Shown here piece after piece: positions 27,359 through 33,669 of a stretch of 64,000 nucleotides of DNA. Location: positions 9,084-73,083 of the forward strand of contig MEVD01000015.1 in assembly GCA_001772865.1 (NCBI GenBank), in the 5' to 3' direction. Origin of the DNA: a candidate division WWE3 bacterium RIFCSPHIGHO2_02_FULL_38_14. GTDB taxonomy: Bacteria; Patescibacteriota; WWE3; UBA101185; UBA10185. The stretch's first letter is position 1, and each line of letters opens with the position of its first letter. A program made the position numbers and the translations under genes. Below the pieces are notes generated by a model. It was not told the DNA's origin. It saw only the letters and a list, made by a program, of their open reading frames with translations, and did not search any database.

Positions 27359-30300
27359 CTACTTTTCTGTGTGCGGACTTTCCCCATTACCAGAGGCTTC
27401 ATCAACGCTTTTTTTTGATCTACCTTTTAAAAGTCTTCTGGCATCAATTCCTTTAACAACAAATAGAGTACTGGCAATTACCACTGCCATTACAACGGCA
27501 GCAAACACTACGAAAATCATAATAATCAGAACCCGGCTTTTCGGCGAATAATTTGCATTAAATATTGCCGCAAGCTGTCCACCCAAAGGAGTAGTTGTGC
27601 CTTTGCTAATAACAAGGTTTCGCGACGTTGTTACTACCTGAGCTTCGGACCTTCCGCTTATTTCCGGTGAATACATTAAAGACACAGTCGCAGGCGGAGT
27701 TAGAAATTCACCTTCACTCACCACCCGCGCCTTATACGAATAACTAAATTTTCCAGTAGGAACACTGTACAACGACATTACTACTCCGTTTTGGGTATAC
27801 TCACGCACATAATAATTGTAGCCATAATTATAGTAATAATGAGTAATTAAATTCGAGTCGGATTTCTTTTCGTTATCGAATTTGTAATTTATAGGAACCA
27901 TGCCAGCAGGCAGCTGGTCTTCTAAAACTCCGTAACTTTCAGAATACGCCAGTCCTTCAACAATTAAATTAACATTTACAGTTTCGCCGACCGATAATGA
28001 ATAAGCGGGATTTTTGCTGTTTACATATTCTCTACTTATAGAAATTCCGTCTGATCTTTTTGATGTTTCAACTGCTGTTCTAAATTGATCCAGAACCATT
28101 GTGGAATACAACTGTCCGGTGCCTTCTTTATTAACTTTTAAATTTATTGCGTTTCCTTTTTTAATTCCCTTTAGATCTAAAGTATTTATTTTCTGCTTTG
28201 CGGATGTAACTGCTCCAGAGGAAATCACGTCATCGCCCAACATAACTTCATATTTAAAATCAGGATTCAGTTCACCGACAGATTTTGAATACTCAACCAG
28301 CGCCCGCATAACCTGGACAGTTCCAAAAGTGTTAGACCAGTAGTCGTGTTTTCTGCTGTTAGACAAATATCTTACTCCTTTAAAAATAGTATCTTTATCC
28401 ACATTAGCCATAATCAAAGCGTTTACTACCAAACCTGTTGAAGCATCTCTTGAACCGAACCTGTCTCCGGCACCACTTTCCCAGAATAAACTCTCTCCTT
28501 GTTTTACTGCTTTGCTCAATATTAATGAAACACCGTTTTTGGAGTTATCTTTGAAACCGTTTCTAATGTTCGCCATAACTCCATACGCAAGTACATCAGG
28601 AGTCATGTCATTACTCAAGCTCACAAAACTCTTTCCCTTATCCGAACCCATCACTGATAATGAATAAATCCTAATGGGATCCAATAACGAATTCGGCTGT
28701 GCATTTTCCAGATACATTTTGGAAGAAGTAAGTAAATCATCTACCGCTCCAGGTTTTAAAGTATCAAGCAAAACCAAATATTCCGCTACATATGAGGTAA
28801 TACCAACATCTGAAATCTTTGAGCTCCACCAACTCCACCCGCCGTCCCAATTCTGCATAGCCCTAAGCCTTTCCAATCCTTCGTCAATCATAGCGTCAGT
28901 ATTTTTTTCTTTCAAAGCTTCCGAAAGAATATCTGGATTACTGGCAGCAATTATTACGGGAACCAGTCTGCTGGTAGTTTGTTCAATACACCCGTAGGGA
29001 TAGTTAACCAAATATTTCATAGAGGAAAGCATCGATCCGGTTAAACTCGAAGATAAGAACAATTGATAATTTGATTCTGATTCTAAAACGTCTTCGGGGA
29101 TATTGATTTCATAAGATGCGGAGTCATATTTAGTTGAAGCGGTTTTTTCTTTATAACCGAAATTTTTAATTGGGAGCTCAACTGTTATGGTATCGGAATC
29201 TTCTTCATTTTCAGTTGAAACAGCCGAATAAGTAAATTTGGTTTTTTCGTTAGCGAACCCGGGAATATAATCCCAATAAATCTGTTTAACACTATTGGAA
29301 CTTATTTGAACCGGATTAGTTAAGCCACGTAAAGGAAGCTCCCTTGATCTGCTCAAATCATTACCGCCATTTTCCTCAACTTTCAGTGAAACTTCAAAAG
29401 TCGAATCATTGTCGGTGTAATTTTGAACCAAAGACGACATTACCATTTTATCTCCCACTCTCGCCAGATTCGGATGGATTGGCCTTACAATAACGTCTTT
29501 TGTAACCACAATTTCTTTTGTGGACTGCCCAACCTGTGTTTCACGGGTATCCGCTATGTCGGAAATTACCCAGGTCGTCAAATTATCGGGCAGTTTAACC
29601 GTAACCGTAGCCTTGCCGCTCTCATCGGTCTTTAAAGAAGGATTCCAATAAGCAGTATCTTTAAAAACGGTTCTGGGAGCTGATGTACCTCCTTTGTCAT
29701 TATGTACCCATACTCCACCGGCAAAATAAGTGTGGTAATTCTCAACTTCCAAGTTATAAACAGTAACACTGTCCAATACCCATTCCACCGATCTCACTTC
29801 CGCACTGCTTCCGTCCAATCCCAAAAGCAAGTCTCCCGTGTCAATATTTCCGGCGGTTTTCCAAGTGTCATTAATTCTTAAAACATGTTCGGGAGTTACT
29901 TTTAAGTCGCCGTTAATAATTAAATATCCTTCAACATCAGTTTTGTGGACATTTAAAACTTTGGCTTTAACCAATTCCCCCGAATCATAGCTCTTTCTGG
30001 TTAAAACATACTCACCGGGTTCAACTTCTGAAATATGTTTAAACACATTTCCTTCAGTAAGAACTAATGTATCTCCGGTAAAACACCCCCCGTATCCGCC
30101 GGCGGCATCCATGCTGATACTCTCCAAAGAATTTGAAAATCCCGTCTCGTTAAATCTTTCCGACCAAAAAGCGTCAAAAATCTTTCTGCCATCAGGAGGA
30201 AAAAGCTCGAAAAGTGCTTTATCTACAATCCACAGCGCCGTATCAGCCGAAACAGGCCTTCCGTTATTATCTTTGGTTTCCACCTGTATCTCAACATTCT

Positions 30301-32638
30301 CTCCCGGACCAAATTTCTCATCTTCGGTTCTGATTTTAACATTAAGCTTTTTCGACTCCGCCGGAACCGAAATATTTAAATACTTGCTCTCAAATTTCGA
30401 TCCCGAAAATATTCCCACATTTACAAAAATGTTCGGCATGTCAGTTTCCTCAAGTTTCAGCTCAAACACTTCTGAAGGCTTAGAAATATGCATTACCTGA
30501 TACCTGTTTACATAATTCCTGTGAAAAGAAATAAAGGCGTCAGTATTTATTTCCCTCGAAGAAATTAAGAGCTTCACGGTATCACCGGGCTTGTACTCTT
30601 TTTTATCCAACTGCATTTCAAATGCCTGAGGATTTTCCGAAGAATAAAACGGATACCTGTCATCATAAACCCACGAAAAAAATGTTTTTTCAAGAGTATT
30701 GCCGGCTTGGTCGGTGGCGGTAACTTTAAATCTGTAAGAACCCGGAAGATCAGGAGTAATCCTAAAACTCACATCACCTTTTGAATTTGTTTTTTCAGTC
30801 ACGTTTGCTATAGGATCCACCCGCATTTCATATGTGGGGTATTTTGACTCCGGTTTTTTAACTTCCACCCAATATTCCCGCGTCACCTGGGCATTAACTT
30901 GCACACCTGAAACATTAGAATCCCTGTAGGGAAATAATATTAGGGGAAGATCCAGTGGCTGATTGATTCTGTTAGAATACGAATATTCATCGCTTCTGAA
31001 AATTCCAAAATTTGCCGGATAGACTAAAATATTTCTTTGATCAGTGCTGGGATTGCCCGATCCGTCGTCGACCGTGGCCTCAAAAACATATATCTTCGGA
31101 TCAGGAGATTTTAAAGTAATTACATTAACGTCTGTTTCGCCGTTTTCATCCAAAAATATACTACCTTCAACTATTTTGTTCCCCGAACTGAACCAATACC
31201 CGTACCTGTAGTCGCTCTCGCTGAATCTTCTGGAATCGGAATAATATTCATATTCATAAATATCGTGGGCATAAACGGTATACGTTACAGAAACTCCGCT
31301 CAAAGGCTGCCCTGAAAAATAATTTCCTTTTAACTTAAAGTCAAATATATCGCCCGCAACCGCTTCGGTGATGGGAGTATCAACTTCAATAAAATATTCC
31401 GGCTTCCTGAAGTATTCAACATTAATATAAGCATAATTAACATCCGGCGAACCTGCGGCATTAATCATAATTGTATAGTTTCCTGTTTTGGTTTTTTCCG
31501 GAATCAACGACTCACCAAAAACCGTGCCATCGCCCGAAATATTTAGCCGTTCGTTGTAAATTATATTTTCGTTCTCATTCCAACCGTAATAAATTTTTAC
31601 ATTGGCCGCACCCTGTGGGATTGAATATTTGGCATCGTTATCCGACCTAATAATAGATTTAAAGTAAATGGTATCTCCGGGCCTGTAAATCGGTCGGTCA
31701 GTGAAAATAAAATATTTTGAATTCTTTGTTTTTTCCTCATACCCCGTCCAGCTCCATCCCCAGTTCAATGATGTAAGGTTCATAGGAATAAACGAAACAC
31801 TGCCACCTGATTCCGCAACCGCCAGATCCGCCCGCTCATTATAACTTGTTGTAGAAATTCCCTGGGCATCAAAACGGTCTTCATCGAGCTTTTCTATTCT
31901 GTTCAACAGGTTATAAGTGCGCACAACCCCTTCAGTAATGACCTTTTTGCTTTTATAATTTTGCCCCCAGAATATAAATTCGTTTTCGCCCTCGGTAGAC
32001 ATAACTCCGAAATTGCTCACAACGGCAAATGACTGTTTGTTTAATCCGCCGATATTTACATCAACCAGCCAGATCCCAGGCTTGCCCGAAGGCAGGTTTA
32101 CAGTTGTAGAAGCGCTTTTTACATCTGTAACATTCAGTGAAAATGAGCTCGCTTTTTCCAGACCGGATGTGCTGAGGCTTTTATCTACCTGATTAAACTC
32201 TTTGTCGTGTATCAAAAAGGTTAAAAGATTATTTGTGCCGGCATTATACAAATCCACCGTAAGCTTGCCGGTGACATTTTTAATATTTATTTCAATCTGG
32301 GGATTTTCAAGATCGCTGAAATTAATTAAACCCTGCATTCCACCGTAATAAAACTGTTCTCTGAGTGATTCGATTTTGCGGATGCCTATTTCGGGAGGAA
32401 TTTCTTCCGTACTTGCTAAAACCGCTGAATCACCCGCACTGCCGGGCTCAAATGCAACAGGCTCTTCCAGATTTTCCTGAGCAGTCTGCAAATTTGTTAA
32501 TTTACTTTTAAGTTCCGCGTTTCGGGCTAAACGGCTATTCTGTGATAAACCATCTAATTTAACGGTCTTAAAAATAAACAATCCGGAAAAAACAATTAAT
32601 AATAGCGAGAAATAGGTTATTAAGATCTTTTTAGGCAT
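27359..32638 (-). CDS. Alpha-2-macroglobulin family protein (thioester-containing), TM-anchored at both termini, with Hint/BIL domain inserted at the bait-region position
   Basis: 1759 aa. N-terminal TM/signal. Thioester motif YPYGCIEQTTSRL about aa 1217. TED-like MQNWDGGWSWW. Post-bait motif PRTVFKDTAYWNP. C-terminal TM IIMIFVVFAAVVMAVVIAS. Hint domain about aa 855-983. Confidence 0.85.
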   Translation of the reverse strand: MPKKILITYFSLLLIVFSGLFIFKTVKLDGLSQNSRLARNAELKSKLTNLQTAQENLEEPVAFEPGSAGDSAVLASTEEIPPEIGIRKIESLREQFYYGGMQGLINFSDLENPQIEINIKNVTGKLTVDLYNAGTNNLLTFLIHDKEFNQVDKSLSTSGLEKASSFSLNVTDVKSASTTVNLPSGKPGIWLVDVNIGGLNKQSFAVVSNFGVMSTEGENEFIFWGQNYKSKKVITEGVVRTYNLLNRIEKLDEDRFDAQGISTTSYNERADLAVAESGGSVSFIPMNLTSLNWGWSWTGYEEKTKNSKYFIFTDRPIYRPGDTIYFKSIIRSDNDAKYSIPQGAANVKIYYGWNENENIIYNERLNISGDGTVFGESLIPEKTKTGNYTIMINAAGSPDVNYAYINVEYFRKPEYFIEVDTPITEAVAGDIFDFKLKGNYFSGQPLSGVSVTYTVYAHDIYEYEYYSDSRRFSESDYRYGYWFSSGNKIVEGSIFLDENGETDVNVITLKSPDPKIYVFEATVDDGSGNPSTDQRNILVYPANFGIFRSDEYSYSNRINQPLDLPLILFPYRDSNVSGVQVNAQVTREYWVEVKKPESKYPTYEMRVDPIANVTEKTNSKGDVSFRITPDLPGSYRFKVTATDQAGNTLEKTFFSWVYDDRYPFYSSENPQAFEMQLDKKEYKPGDTVKLLISSREINTDAFISFHRNYVNRYQVMHISKPSEVFELKLEETDMPNIFVNVGIFSGSKFESKYLNISVPAESKKLNVKIRTEDEKFGPGENVEIQVETKDNNGRPVSADTALWIVDKALFELFPPDGRKIFDAFWSERFNETGFSNSLESISMDAAGGYGGCFTGDTLVLTEGNVFKHISEVEPGEYVLTRKSYDSGELVKAKVLNVHKTDVEGYLIINGDLKVTPEHVLRINDTWKTAGNIDTGDLLLGLDGSSAEVRSVEWVLDSVTVYNLEVENYHTYFAGGVWVHNDKGGTSAPRTVFKDTAYWNPSLKTDESGKATVTVKLPDNLTTWVISDIADTRETQVGQSTKEIVVTKDVIVRPIHPNLARVGDKMVMSSLVQNYTDNDSTFEVSLKVEENGGNDLSRSRELPLRGLTNPVQISSNSVKQIYWDYIPGFANEKTKFTYSAVSTENEEDSDTITVELPIKNFGYKEKTASTKYDSASYEINIPEDVLESESNYQLFLSSSLTGSMLSSMKYLVNYPYGCIEQTTSRLVPVIIAASNPDILSEALKEKNTDAMIDEGLERLRAMQNWDGGWSWWSSKISDVGITSYVAEYLVLLDTLKPGAVDDLLTSSKMYLENAQPNSLLDPIRIYSLSVMGSDKGKSFVSLSNDMTPDVLAYGVMANIRNGFKDNSKNGVSLILSKAVKQGESLFWESGAGDRFGSRDASTGLVVNALIMANVDKDTIFKGVRYLSNSRKHDYWSNTFGTVQVMRALVEYSKSVGELNPDFKYEVMLGDDVISSGAVTSAKQKINTLDLKGIKKGNAINLKVNKEGTGQLYSTMVLDQFRTAVETSKRSDGISISREYVNSKNPAYSLSVGETVNVNLIVEGLAYSESYGVLEDQLPAGMVPINYKFDNEKKSDSNLITHYYYNYGYNYYVREYTQNGVVMSLYSVPTGKFSYSYKARVVSEGEFLTPPATVSLMYSPEISGRSEAQVVTTSRNLVISKGTTTPLGGQLAAIFNANYSPKSRVLIIMIFVVFAAVVMAVVIASTLFVVKGIDARRLLKGRSKKSVDEASGNGESPHTEK
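29699..30075 (-). other. Hint (Hedgehog/intein) domain, bacterial-intein-like, embedded in the A2M ORF
   Basis: Block A CFTGDTLVLTEG (Cys1 codon 30073..30075), block B KVTPEHVL (TxxH), blocks F/G VYNLEVENYHTYFAGGVWVHN (Asn codon 29699..29701). The +1 residue is Asp (DKGG), so canonical splicing is not expected. Confidence 0.8.
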
Positions 32639-32748: not shown

Positions 32749-33669
32749 ATGACTAAACACCTGACACAAGAAGAAGCTGAACGAATAAATCCCGATGTAG
32801 TGGCTGAAAAACTAAGGGAAGATCATGATAAAGCTATAGAGCTATTAAAAGCTGCGGGGTGCCGCCCTGAATCAACATCACCAAACGAAATCAGAAAACG
32901 GCTGATACTGGAAGCACTTCCCGAAGGGTTTCTGGAAGAACTCCAAGGATACATACCCTATTATTATAAGAAAGAAGAAGAAATATTTGGAAAAAAACAC
33001 AAATTCGAAACAGAAGTAGAACGGAAAGAATTTGAAAAACAGCTATTAAGGGGTGCGCTTTTTGAAATGCTTGTCCAGTACGACAAAGAAATTACACCTC
33101 CCCCAAACGAAACGGCAATGGAAATACTGGGAATAATGCAAAATCCCGAAGTGTTCGGATTGGAAAAAACCATCGGGTATAAACGAAATCCCGATGAAAC
33201 TTACGTAGAAATAGATGAAAAAGGACAAATTTTTATTAAAGTAATAGGCGAGGCTAAATTAGGGCATGTGGACGAAAGATTTTTGAGCCAGATGGAAAGT
33301 TTTGACGAAAACCTTCAGGCTATGGCTAATGTCATAAACAAAATGACCACACAAGAACTACAGGAGCACGGACTAGTACACCTGGCAACCAGAAGTGCAC
33401 AGATAGACACGGAATTTTCGGACGCCGCCCAACAAGAAAGGCCAAAAACACTGATATTGGGAGACGGAACCTACGGACACACCAAAGTATTAGCTATACC
33501 TGCCGACAGACTGCAGGATTTTGAATCTATGATGAAATACGAGCATCAAAACGAAACCAACAGGGAAAGATATATCGAAATAATGGGGGATGTAACGGTG
33601 AAAAGATCGGCTTTTAAAGCAAGAGAAGTAGGAGATATGGCCGACGGGCTTTACGAGAAAATGTTTTAA
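32749..33669 (+). CDS. Hypothetical protein
   Basis: 306-aa acidic soluble protein. Divergent from the A2M gene. Confidence 0.45.
   Translation: MTKHLTQEEAERINPDVVAEKLREDHDKAIELLKAAGCRPESTSPNEIRKRLILEALPEGFLEELQGYIPYYYKKEEEIFGKKHKFETEVERKEFEKQLLRGALFEMLVQYDKEITPPPNETAMEILGIMQNPEVFGLEKTIGYKRNPDETYVEIDEKGQIFIKVIGEAKLGHVDERFLSQMESFDENLQAMANVINKMTTQELQEHGLVHLATRSAQIDTEFSDAAQQERPKTLILGDGTYGHTKVLAIPADRLQDFESMMKYEHQNETNRERYIEIMGDVTVKRSAFKAREVGDMADGLYEKMF

Follow-up and report, generated by a model that had tools for sequence, protein, structure and literature searches.

Can a macroglobulin open its own bait loop? This question is raised by a 64,000-nucleotide stretch of contig MEVD01000015.1 from the ultrasmall candidate division WWE3 bacterium RIFCSPHIGHO2_02_FULL_38_14 (here called the window), which encodes an alpha-2-macroglobulin (A2M)-family surface protein with an intein-like Hint domain in its bait loop. 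To our knowledge, all members of the A2M/complement superfamily studied so far depend for their switching on an external protease, which cleaves the bait or anaphylatoxin (ANA) region. The WWE3 protein belongs to a large natural family in which the bait loop holds its own predicted peptide-bond-breaking machinery, more conserved than the rest of the protein, and the evidence set out below suggests that no protease is needed for such a protein to cut or rewire its trigger loop.

The gene (27359..32638, minus strand, as are all features of the protein given below) reads as one uninterrupted open reading frame (ORF) of 1759 aa by translation, and its product is identical to OGC45633.1, a 'hypothetical protein' from candidate division WWE3 bacteria. 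Five Pfam models score above cutoff, namely MG2 (aa 308-401), the bait-region domain A2M_BRD (30203..30619, aa 674-812), A2M, the macroglobulin (MG) domain after the bait (29384..29656, aa 995-1085), TED_complement (the TED, aa 1204-1298) and bMG10, the bacterial A2M MG10 (27662..28048, aa 1531-1659). The thioester motif G-C-I-E-Q lies at 28979..28993 (aa 1216-1220), and GCxEQ recurs in 121/121 close homologs. In addition, the family profile matches ECAM with an E value of 2e-58, and the MG part of a structural model superposes on A2M structures (Foldseek). The protein begins with a hydrophobic segment, either a signal peptide or a signal anchor (32558..32626, aa 5-27; a hydrophobic N terminus is present in 101/113 full-length homologs), and ends in a transmembrane helix followed by a basic tail (27458..27541, about aa 1700-1727; 111/113), which anchors the C-terminal chain in the membrane. 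Because of these two features, we infer that the body of the protein, Hint included, is extracytoplasmic and membrane-anchored. Only two cysteines occur in the 1759 residues, Cys852 of the Hint and Cys1217 of the CIEQ motif, both predicted thioester formers; exactly two are likewise found in 87 of 112 homologs.

Profile, fold and motifs delimit a Hint domain of 129 aa (29699..30085, aa 852-980). The preliminary description of this DNA, which named no strand, had its end at 29699 right, whereas the range 29699-30075 and the length of 126 aa fell 10 nt short and left out the first three and a third codons, Cys1 included. On the N side, the bait linker SERFNETGFSNSLESISMDAAGGYGG (30086..30163, aa 826-851) ends in Gly-Gly before Cys1, giving the junction AAGGYGG|CFTGDTLV. 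The codon of Cys852 (Hint Cys1, 30083..30085) specifies the predicted nucleophile of an N-S acyl shift on the Gly851-Cys852 bond. Block B reads T-P-E-H (29885..29896, aa 915-918) and block F reads V-Y-N (29753..29761, aa 960-962), which is invariant; its Asn is shared with the bacterial intein-like (BIL) domain 2LWY, whereas the RecA intein has Asp there (V-Y-D). The C-terminal stretch, which includes ...VWVHN, runs as ...NYHTYFAGGVWVHN and ends in Asn980 (29699-29701), and cyclisation of this Asn, paired with His979 (29699..29704), is predicted to break the Asn980-Asp981 bond. Beyond it come the C-side linker DKGGTSAPRTV (29666..29698, aa 981-991), with Asp at +1 and DKGG at aa 981-984, and the motif FKDTAYWNP (29639..29665, aa 992-1000), so that PRTVFKDTAYWNP occupies aa 988-1000. 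The motifs first quoted for this protein (GGYGG|CFTGDTLV, TPEH, VWVHN, DKGG, PRTVFKDTAYWNP and GCIEQ) are all present.

The identification as a Hint domain, first made from the sequence alone, is borne out by several searches. The PT-HINT model (PF07591) matches aa 866-981 with 37.7 bits (E 2.9e-9), where the gathering score is 27.7, the Vint, Intein_splicing and Hint models of Pfam give weaker matches on the same stretch, and TIGR01443 (NCBIfam intein_Cterm) scores above cutoff on the Hint segment. Queried alone with phmmer, the segment matches the Clostridium thermocellum BIL 2LWY over its full length (E 1e-6), with mini-inteins next, and the family profile reaches 4e-17 to 2LWY and about 3e-16 to 6TMM/6Y75. 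In an AlphaFold (AF2) model, built from 31 homologs for aa 668-1098 and with a mean predicted local distance difference test score (pLDDT) of 81, the Hint is a confident all-beta domain (pLDDT about 85-96). Foldseek superposes it on 2LWY with a template modeling (TM) score of 0.84 and a root mean square deviation of 1.9 A, and on BIL2 of Tetrahymena (6TMM/6Y75) with TM scores of 0.74-0.77. The molecule name of the latter entries, 'NAD(P)(+)--arginine ADP-ribosyltransferase', could be taken to mean a toxin pre-Hint; this was rejected, as the Foldseek description gives BIL2 of the Tetrahymena BUBL locus. Type-A BIL domains reportedly reside in variable regions of secreted or surface proteins, and the WWE3 Hint lies in a variable loop of a predicted secreted or surface protein, ends in His-Asn and has no +1 nucleophile. 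Type-A BILs are defined by the Hint motifs, His-Asn and the lack of a +1 nucleophile, with an N-terminal thioester and cleavage by Asn cyclisation (PMC4031507). The insert is a type-A BIL-like Hint domain of the PT-HINT clade, and a chance match is excluded.

The position of the insert can be fixed from both sides. It sits between A2M_BRD and the Pfam A2M domain and, more narrowly, between A2M_BRD and FKDTAYWNP, the counterpart of human FPETWIWD at the start of the alpha'NT-like segment after the bait. ECAM residues are numbered here from the cysteine of its CLEQ motif, which we take to be Cys1187 (a length check agrees: 1614 + 39 = 1653). In the alignment of the family profile to ECAM, FW(824-825) falls on about FFG918-920, three residues ahead of R923-L942, and the alignment stops at F824-W825 and resumes only past the MG domain. 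The stretch R923-L942 is the ECAM bait stretch that is disordered following elastase cleavage (PMC4498604). On the other side, VHN|DKGGTSAPRTVFKDTAYWNP (V978 onward, ...DKGGTSAPRTVFKDTAYWNP) aligns to human A2M precursor residues 721 onward; as these fall in the human bait, P690-T728 (PMC9352918), the C-junction of the Hint lies inside the bait. The bait-loop placement proposed in the preliminary description is therefore upheld by domain order and by both alignments. According to the human alignment, the segment after the Hint is the counterpart of the alpha'NT 'plug', which a bait cut frees to bring about the A2M conformational change; no bait sequence is essential for this, and a 39-residue GGS replacement works in human A2M (PMC9352918). 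In the AlphaFold model, the linkers around the Hint (aa 832-849 and 983-995) have pLDDT values below 50 and are predicted to be disordered, so that the WWE3 bait consists of two short low-confidence linkers with a folded Hint between them. Topologically, the bait slot is the place of the ANA domain in C3/C4/C5.

A search of 5.8 billion proteins returned 333 at E <= 1e-10. The best 120 were analysed, and 115 of them have the Hint inserted at an identical site (116 when the window protein is counted), at 37-74% identity. Their source names are Patescibacteria lineages (Daviesbacteria, Gottesmanbacteria, Roizmanbacteria and Pacebacteria). The residues on which the chemistry would depend are nearly or fully invariant in the 116 sequences: Gly at -1 (116/116) and -2 (114/116), Cys1 (115/116), Phe2 (116/116), the block-B Thr (115/116) and His (116/116), the penultimate His and the terminal Asn (116/116 each). 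Position +1 is Gln in 74, Glu in 20, Asp in 19 and Asn in 3 sequences, never Cys, Ser or Thr; Lys at +2 (Lys982) is found in 116/116 and Gly at +3 in 115/116, and Arg989 of the C-side linker is invariant in the family. In P0001, which at 74% identity is the closest homolog, Cys1 is replaced by Gly. Taking it as a sign that splicing is dispensable was rejected, as its full-length 90%-cluster mate P0268 has Cys, which makes the Gly a read-assembly variant. Length is 125-129 aa in all 116 Hint-bearing proteins, with no homing endonuclease in the Hint. Conservation among close homologs is slightly higher in the Hint (54%) than in its flanks (50-52%), and Hint divergence tracks host divergence (r = 0.77, 116 homologs).

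At greater depth, a HMMER search with the Hint alone against 1.84 billion cluster representatives gave 7438 matches at E <= 1e-3 and 1203 at E <= 1e-10. Of 151 proteins analysed (144 newly listed plus seven family members), 103 are A2M proteins. These fall into three scaffolds, all in the order BRD, Hint, A2M: one of about 1650-1780 aa with YPYGC[VI]EQ, one of about 2100-2285 aa that has YPYDCxEQ as well as additional Big_5 domains, and one of about 1760-1900 aa with an N-terminal Big_5 and without the thioester cysteine (G-x-R-x-D-Q). Members of the third scaffold without this cysteine are P0159, P0169, P0192, P0208, P0255, P0262 and P0264; two proteins of the ~1680-aa scaffold, P0147 and P0182, also lack it. 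Several of the thioester-less proteins hold a single Cys, which is Hint Cys1. Compared with the window protein, the scaffolds are 17-28% identical and their Hints 44-51%. A further ~100 clusters at 50% identity show the GGG|CF and HN|xK[GD] junctions. A scan of one genome per GTDB species added 19 Hint-bearing loci among the best 80 inspected, all with GGG|CF and HN|x-K-[GD]. Residues at +1 in these further loci and clusters are Q/D/E/G/N/A/S/L/K; among the clusters listed, Ser occurs in one only (P0259), and neither Cys nor Thr appears. The same insertion is thus found in 116 close homologs as well as in three scaffolds in Patescibacteria, as the preliminary description had suggested looking for. 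Nine contigs of the scan (L002, L003, L005, L009, L013, L015, L016, L017 and L018) carry labels such as 'Nevskiaceae', 'uncultured Gammaproteobacteria', 'Bdellovibrionales' and 'Bathyarchaeia archaeon'; these look like mislabelled or mis-binned metagenome-assembled genomes rather than true occurrences outside Patescibacteria.

These counts bear on the proposal that the Hint is either catalytically silent, a structural plug or decoy, or a canonical mobile intein that has degenerated in the WWE3 copy. Hint folds are occasionally kept as inactive modules, and the WWE3 copy does have Asp at +1; an inactive domain, however, would not keep Cys1, the block-B Thr and His and the His-Asn pair invariant over hundreds of sequences, and we find the proposal scarcely credible. 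Its intein version is already refuted by the +1 census. The domain has the intein residue set (Cys852, T915-P-E-H918, H979-N980) but no Cys, Ser or Thr at +1; Cys and Thr are absent there from all relatives, with Ser in that one listed cluster, and no homing endonuclease is present. Its site, too, is not the conserved site of an essential enzyme but the hypervariable bait loop of a secreted protein, where it is near-universal in the clade and co-diverges with its host. The argument that canonical splicing is unlikely with Asp at +1 therefore stands, and because the relatives have Q/E/D/N and no Cys or Thr at this position, the WWE3 copy is not a point-mutated splicing intein either.

In a neighbor-joining tree of 196 Hint domains, a single clade of 111 takes in all of the 103 Hints found in A2M proteins. 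Their nearest non-A2M relatives are proteins in which 2-5 Hint units follow one another directly, linked only by K-G-(G)-(G) (...VHN|KGGG|CF...). Such tandem arrays are seen in P0122, P0123, P0124, P0125, P0130, P0174, P0179, P0256, P0258 and P0260, in some of them in pilin-like (type IV pilin N-methylation signal), PKD, Big_9 or Tim44-like contexts. The arrays have Lys at +1, compared with +2 in the A2M Hints; as both groups share them, Gly before Cys1 and Lys just past His-Asn are traits of the Hint clade. On these sequence comparisons, the A2M Hint is an old, domesticated and vertically kept module and the most conserved part of the protein. The lack of an endonuclease, the fixed length, the correlation with host divergence, the single clade and the same slot in three scaffolds all argue for domestication, not mobility, and on the same comparisons a recently mobile element is excluded. 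Because the Hint is kept in scaffolds without CxEQ, its role cannot depend on the TED thioester.

What would the Hint do in this loop? The reading that we favor, with a probability of roughly 60%, is that, once exported, it processes itself and cuts the bait loop with no protease involved, as its residues and the analogy with characterized BILs suggest. Self-processing chemistry at both the N and C termini is a well-supported prediction from the conserved residues. The protein would be exported by Sec and fold outside the cell, after which Cys852, with Thr915 and His918 of block B, would turn the Gly851-Cys852 peptide bond into a thioester, and Asn980, with His979, would cyclise and break the Asn980-Asp981 bond. 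The branched intermediate of canonical splicing would not arise, because it cannot form with no Cys, Ser or Thr after the Hint. The Gly851 thioester would then be resolved by water (cleavage) or by an amine. Of these outcomes, an autocatalytic bait cut with release of the Hint is favored, as cleavage products dominate in characterized type-A BILs (PMC4031507). The new N terminus, [D/Q/E]-K-G...R..FKDTAYWNP, would equal the product of a protease in other macroglobulins and of the C3 convertase in C3. The result would be a two-chain form (aa ~28-851 and the membrane-anchored aa 981-1759) or an already switched protein, obtained without a protease, and the cut could represent either maturation, comparable to C3 chain processing and to cleaved TEP1, or full triggering of the conformational change. 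The preliminary description had read the insert as a device for protease-independent activation or as a second thioester. The former would agree with the favored outcome; the latter is modified by the presence of the Hint in scaffolds that have no first thioester.

Several points weigh against the autocatalytic cut. The catalytic residues should be just as strictly conserved if the Hint must splice itself out, and in type-A BILs the flanks can be ligated even with no nucleophile at +1, which would leave an intact bait (PMC4031507). If self-cleavage were constitutive and set off the TED thioester immediately, this would seem wasteful, and the AF2 model does not tell how the Hint is oriented towards the MG ring. 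In addition, five close homologs lack the Hint cleanly and have a short Gly-rich bait instead (...AERGGG-GGxxxR..FKDTAYWNP), so the A2M scaffold works without it. In a neighbor-joining tree with short internal branches and without support values, these five scatter in at least three places among the Hint-bearing proteins, which weakly suggests secondary losses. Further Hint-less cousins were found by the GTDB species scan in Peribacteria/Peregrinibacteria, Chloroflexota and Bipolaricaulia, and their baits at the Hint site are either poly-Gly (PGSKGGGGG...R..F.DTAYWNP) or long and rich in Ala, Pro and Met. The poly-Gly form, PGSKGGGGG-x(5-10)-R-x-x-F-x-DTAYWNP, is seen at L024, L025, L030, L032, L035, L041, L047, L049, L065 and L080, and is conserved in the Hint-less relatives from Peribacteria/Peregrinibacteria and some Chloroflexota. 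The Hint is inserted right behind GGG, and the poly-Gly context therefore predates or accompanies it. As a speculation, a Gly5 bait might be a target for Gly-Gly endopeptidases.

An explanation that we hold to be possible, if a minority view, is that the Hint is a passenger element removed by traceless splicing of the BIL type. Residue 981, its alpha-amine set free, would attack the thioester and religate the flanks, and the mature protein would be a normal A2M whose short Gly-rich bait (…AAGGYGG-DKGGTSAPR…) still awaits a protease; the Hint would be kept only since failed splicing would inactivate its host. Type-A BILs can use exactly such a route (PMC4031507), and 2LWY is the closest solved relative of the Hint. 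The baits of the Hint-less homologs match the predicted spliced product in length and character, and a constraint to splice would fit the strictness with which the catalytic residues are kept. Against it, the dominance of cleavage products in characterized type-A BILs counts here as well. A useless insert, moreover, could be lost by imprecise deletion, because the bait is the most sequence-tolerant loop, yet the Hint is kept in about 95% of the sampled close homologs and in three scaffolds, and it is the best conserved module, at 44-51% identity compared with 17-28% for the scaffolds. Finally, +1 is limited to Q/E/D/N in the close homologs and +2 is always Lys, and neither is obviously required by an alpha-amine attack.

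The invariant Lys leads to another proposal, a thioester hand-off in which an amine, either of a side chain or foreign, resolves the Gly851 thioester, comparable to BIL2 or Hedgehog. The amine could be that of Lys982, yielding an isopeptide-bridged two-chain protein with a free N terminus, or it could be carried, as a lysine or cell-wall amine, by an attacking protease, the envelope of the cell itself or a host cell; the Hint would then be a second covalent warhead and, in the thioester-less scaffolds, the only one. BIL2 (6TMM/6Y75), a close structural neighbor, catalyzes isopeptide formation between a Lys epsilon-amine and a C terminus and also couples its N-flank to further proteins (PMC8616854). 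The A2M Hints invariably have Lys at +2 and the tandem arrays have it at +1, the N-flank ends in Gly-Gly like ubiquitin-type donors, and the Hint is retained in scaffolds without CxEQ, with Cys1 possibly the sole Cys. The argument is purely one of analogy, however. The Lys may merely tune Asn cyclisation or reflect how linkers are composed throughout the clade, the sequence points to no acceptor, and the occurrence of the same Hint in thioester-bearing and thioester-less scaffolds is equally explained by a role unrelated to covalent capture. We judge a hand-off to be decidedly improbable.

An unlikely combination of cut and conjugation would make the Hint a built-in convertase as well as a second warhead. 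Asn cyclisation at the bait would let the macroglobulin fire by itself, perhaps in a timed or conditional way, and the Gly851 thioester would be passed on to an amine. The acceptor would be Lys982, or else a lysine or cell-wall amine belonging to a protease, to the envelope of the cell or to a host cell; in scaffolds without CxEQ, the Hint thioester would be the sole means of covalent capture. If true, this would be a protease-independent, Hint-driven mode of activation and conjugation for the A2M/complement superfamily, and one that could serve epibiotic bacteria of the candidate phyla radiation (CPR) in surface attachment or defense.

The surroundings of the gene were also inspected. The window has a G+C content of 34.8% and nine tRNA genes (within 12037-33831 and at 62435-62508), and no rRNA, further Hint domains or signs of mobile elements around the A2M gene were found across its 64,000 nt. 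The A2M gene is flanked by a DoxX-like gene with tRNA-Val and by a 306-aa ORF (32749-33669) with tRNA-Gln. The neighbors are housekeeping genes, for CTP synthase, a protein resembling a class A beta-lactamase or a D-Ala-D-Ala carboxypeptidase, a glucose/sorbosone dehydrogenase, a protein with an MGMT DNA-binding domain and a Mur ligase-like protein. Two antisense ORFs lie inside the A2M gene, at 28674-28997 (+) and 30111-30500 (+), of 107 and 129 aa, and are probably not genes; an antisense ORF of L001 clusters with one of them because both mirror conserved A2M sequence.

A2M and PBP1c are a classical bacterial gene pairing. PBP1c (pbpC) was not found beside the window A2M gene. At related loci, a PBP1c-like gene (Transgly + Transpeptidase + BiPBP_C) stands upstream of the large scaffold (L013:105-2510, L015:168-2417 and L016:569-2404) or on the opposite strand near the ~1660-aa scaffold (L010:253-3060). 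In about 11/19 loci, a gene for a membrane-anchored Memo-like protein (PF01875, about 300 aa) directly follows the A2M-Hint gene, often overlapping the A2M stop codon (for instance L001:9260-10180, L002:9201-10109, L003:9204-10115, L005:9180-10088 and L021:5471-6376). No Memo-like gene lies beside the window A2M gene, where the 306-aa ORF is unrelated to the Memo-like protein. An operon partner of either kind as an explanation of function was rejected, as neither adjoins the window A2M gene.

BIL/PT-HINT domains and bacterial A2M proteins are each known, and their combined architecture is already visible in precomputed Pfam matches. In the full-text literature searched, outside which most subscription journals lie, no description was found of a Hint or intein in any macroglobulin or of a BIL in CPR surface proteins; 'macroglobulin' with 'intein' gave unrelated co-mentions only, and with 'Hint domain' none. 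A new activation principle for the A2M/complement superfamily is plausible. If the protein cleaves itself, the superfamily would have its first route of maturation or activation that needs no protease, a natural equivalent of what the C3 convertase does; should it religate or conjugate instead, BIL chemistry would extend to a new class of host proteins. The family also places BIL/PT-HINT domains in a clear functional context other than toxins, on the cell surface of Patescibacteria, which is poorly understood.

Among known systems, the type-A BIL/PT-HINT domains are closest in the insert itself. Like 2LWY, it is a Hint fold of ~130 aa with a Cys-Phe start, TxxH, V-Y-N and a His-Asn end, it has no Cys, Ser or Thr at +1 and no endonuclease, it lies in a variable region of a secreted protein, and it finds there its best match in sequence and fold. 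It differs in its host, an A2M/thioester-protein scaffold, and in its site, a functional trigger loop; moreover, the A2M insertion is monophyletic, conserved over three scaffolds and the best conserved part of its protein. Known PT-HINTs precede and release C-terminal toxin modules, whereas no toxin follows the WWE3 A2M Hint. Hedgehog autoprocessing resolves its thioester with cholesterol. With Hedgehog and BIL2 of the Tetrahymena BUBL locus, the WWE3 Hint shares a Gly before the domain and the G|CF junction, and in both of these systems the thioester is resolved by a nucleophile other than +1, in BIL2 a Lys epsilon-amine (PMC8616854). Unlike them, the WWE3 protein has neither a ubiquitin-like donor domain nor a sterol-recognition region.

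The host protein, in turn, resembles ECAM/YfhM, Salmonella SaA2M and human A2M in having MG2, A2M_BRD, A2M, a TED with CxEQ and bMG10, and it has a bait loop ahead of an F-x-[DE]-T-x-[WY]-W motif, as in the bacterial and human proteins; the classical PBP1c neighbor of bacterial A2M is kept at some related loci. In contrast to these proteins, only two short linkers on either side of a folded, predicted autoprocessing domain are left of the disordered, protease-sensitive bait, it is anchored by a C-terminal transmembrane helix instead of an N-terminal lipid, it has only two Cys, and one of its Hint-bearing sister scaffolds has no thioester. In the C3 structure, the ANA domain lies just upstream of the alpha'NT segment. 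Complement C3/C4/C5 offers an architectural parallel to a folded domain in the bait-equivalent loop directly upstream of the alpha'NT segment (FPESWLW-type), and the ANA domain and the bait have been treated as equivalent cleavable moieties (PMC9352918). Removal of ANA creates the alpha' N terminus and leads to a conformational change, and the mature complement protein has two chains. The Hint and ANA domains are not homologous, and the agents of cleavage differ as well: furin and convertases cut the complement proteins, whereas the domain inserted in the WWE3 protein is predicted to cut itself out.

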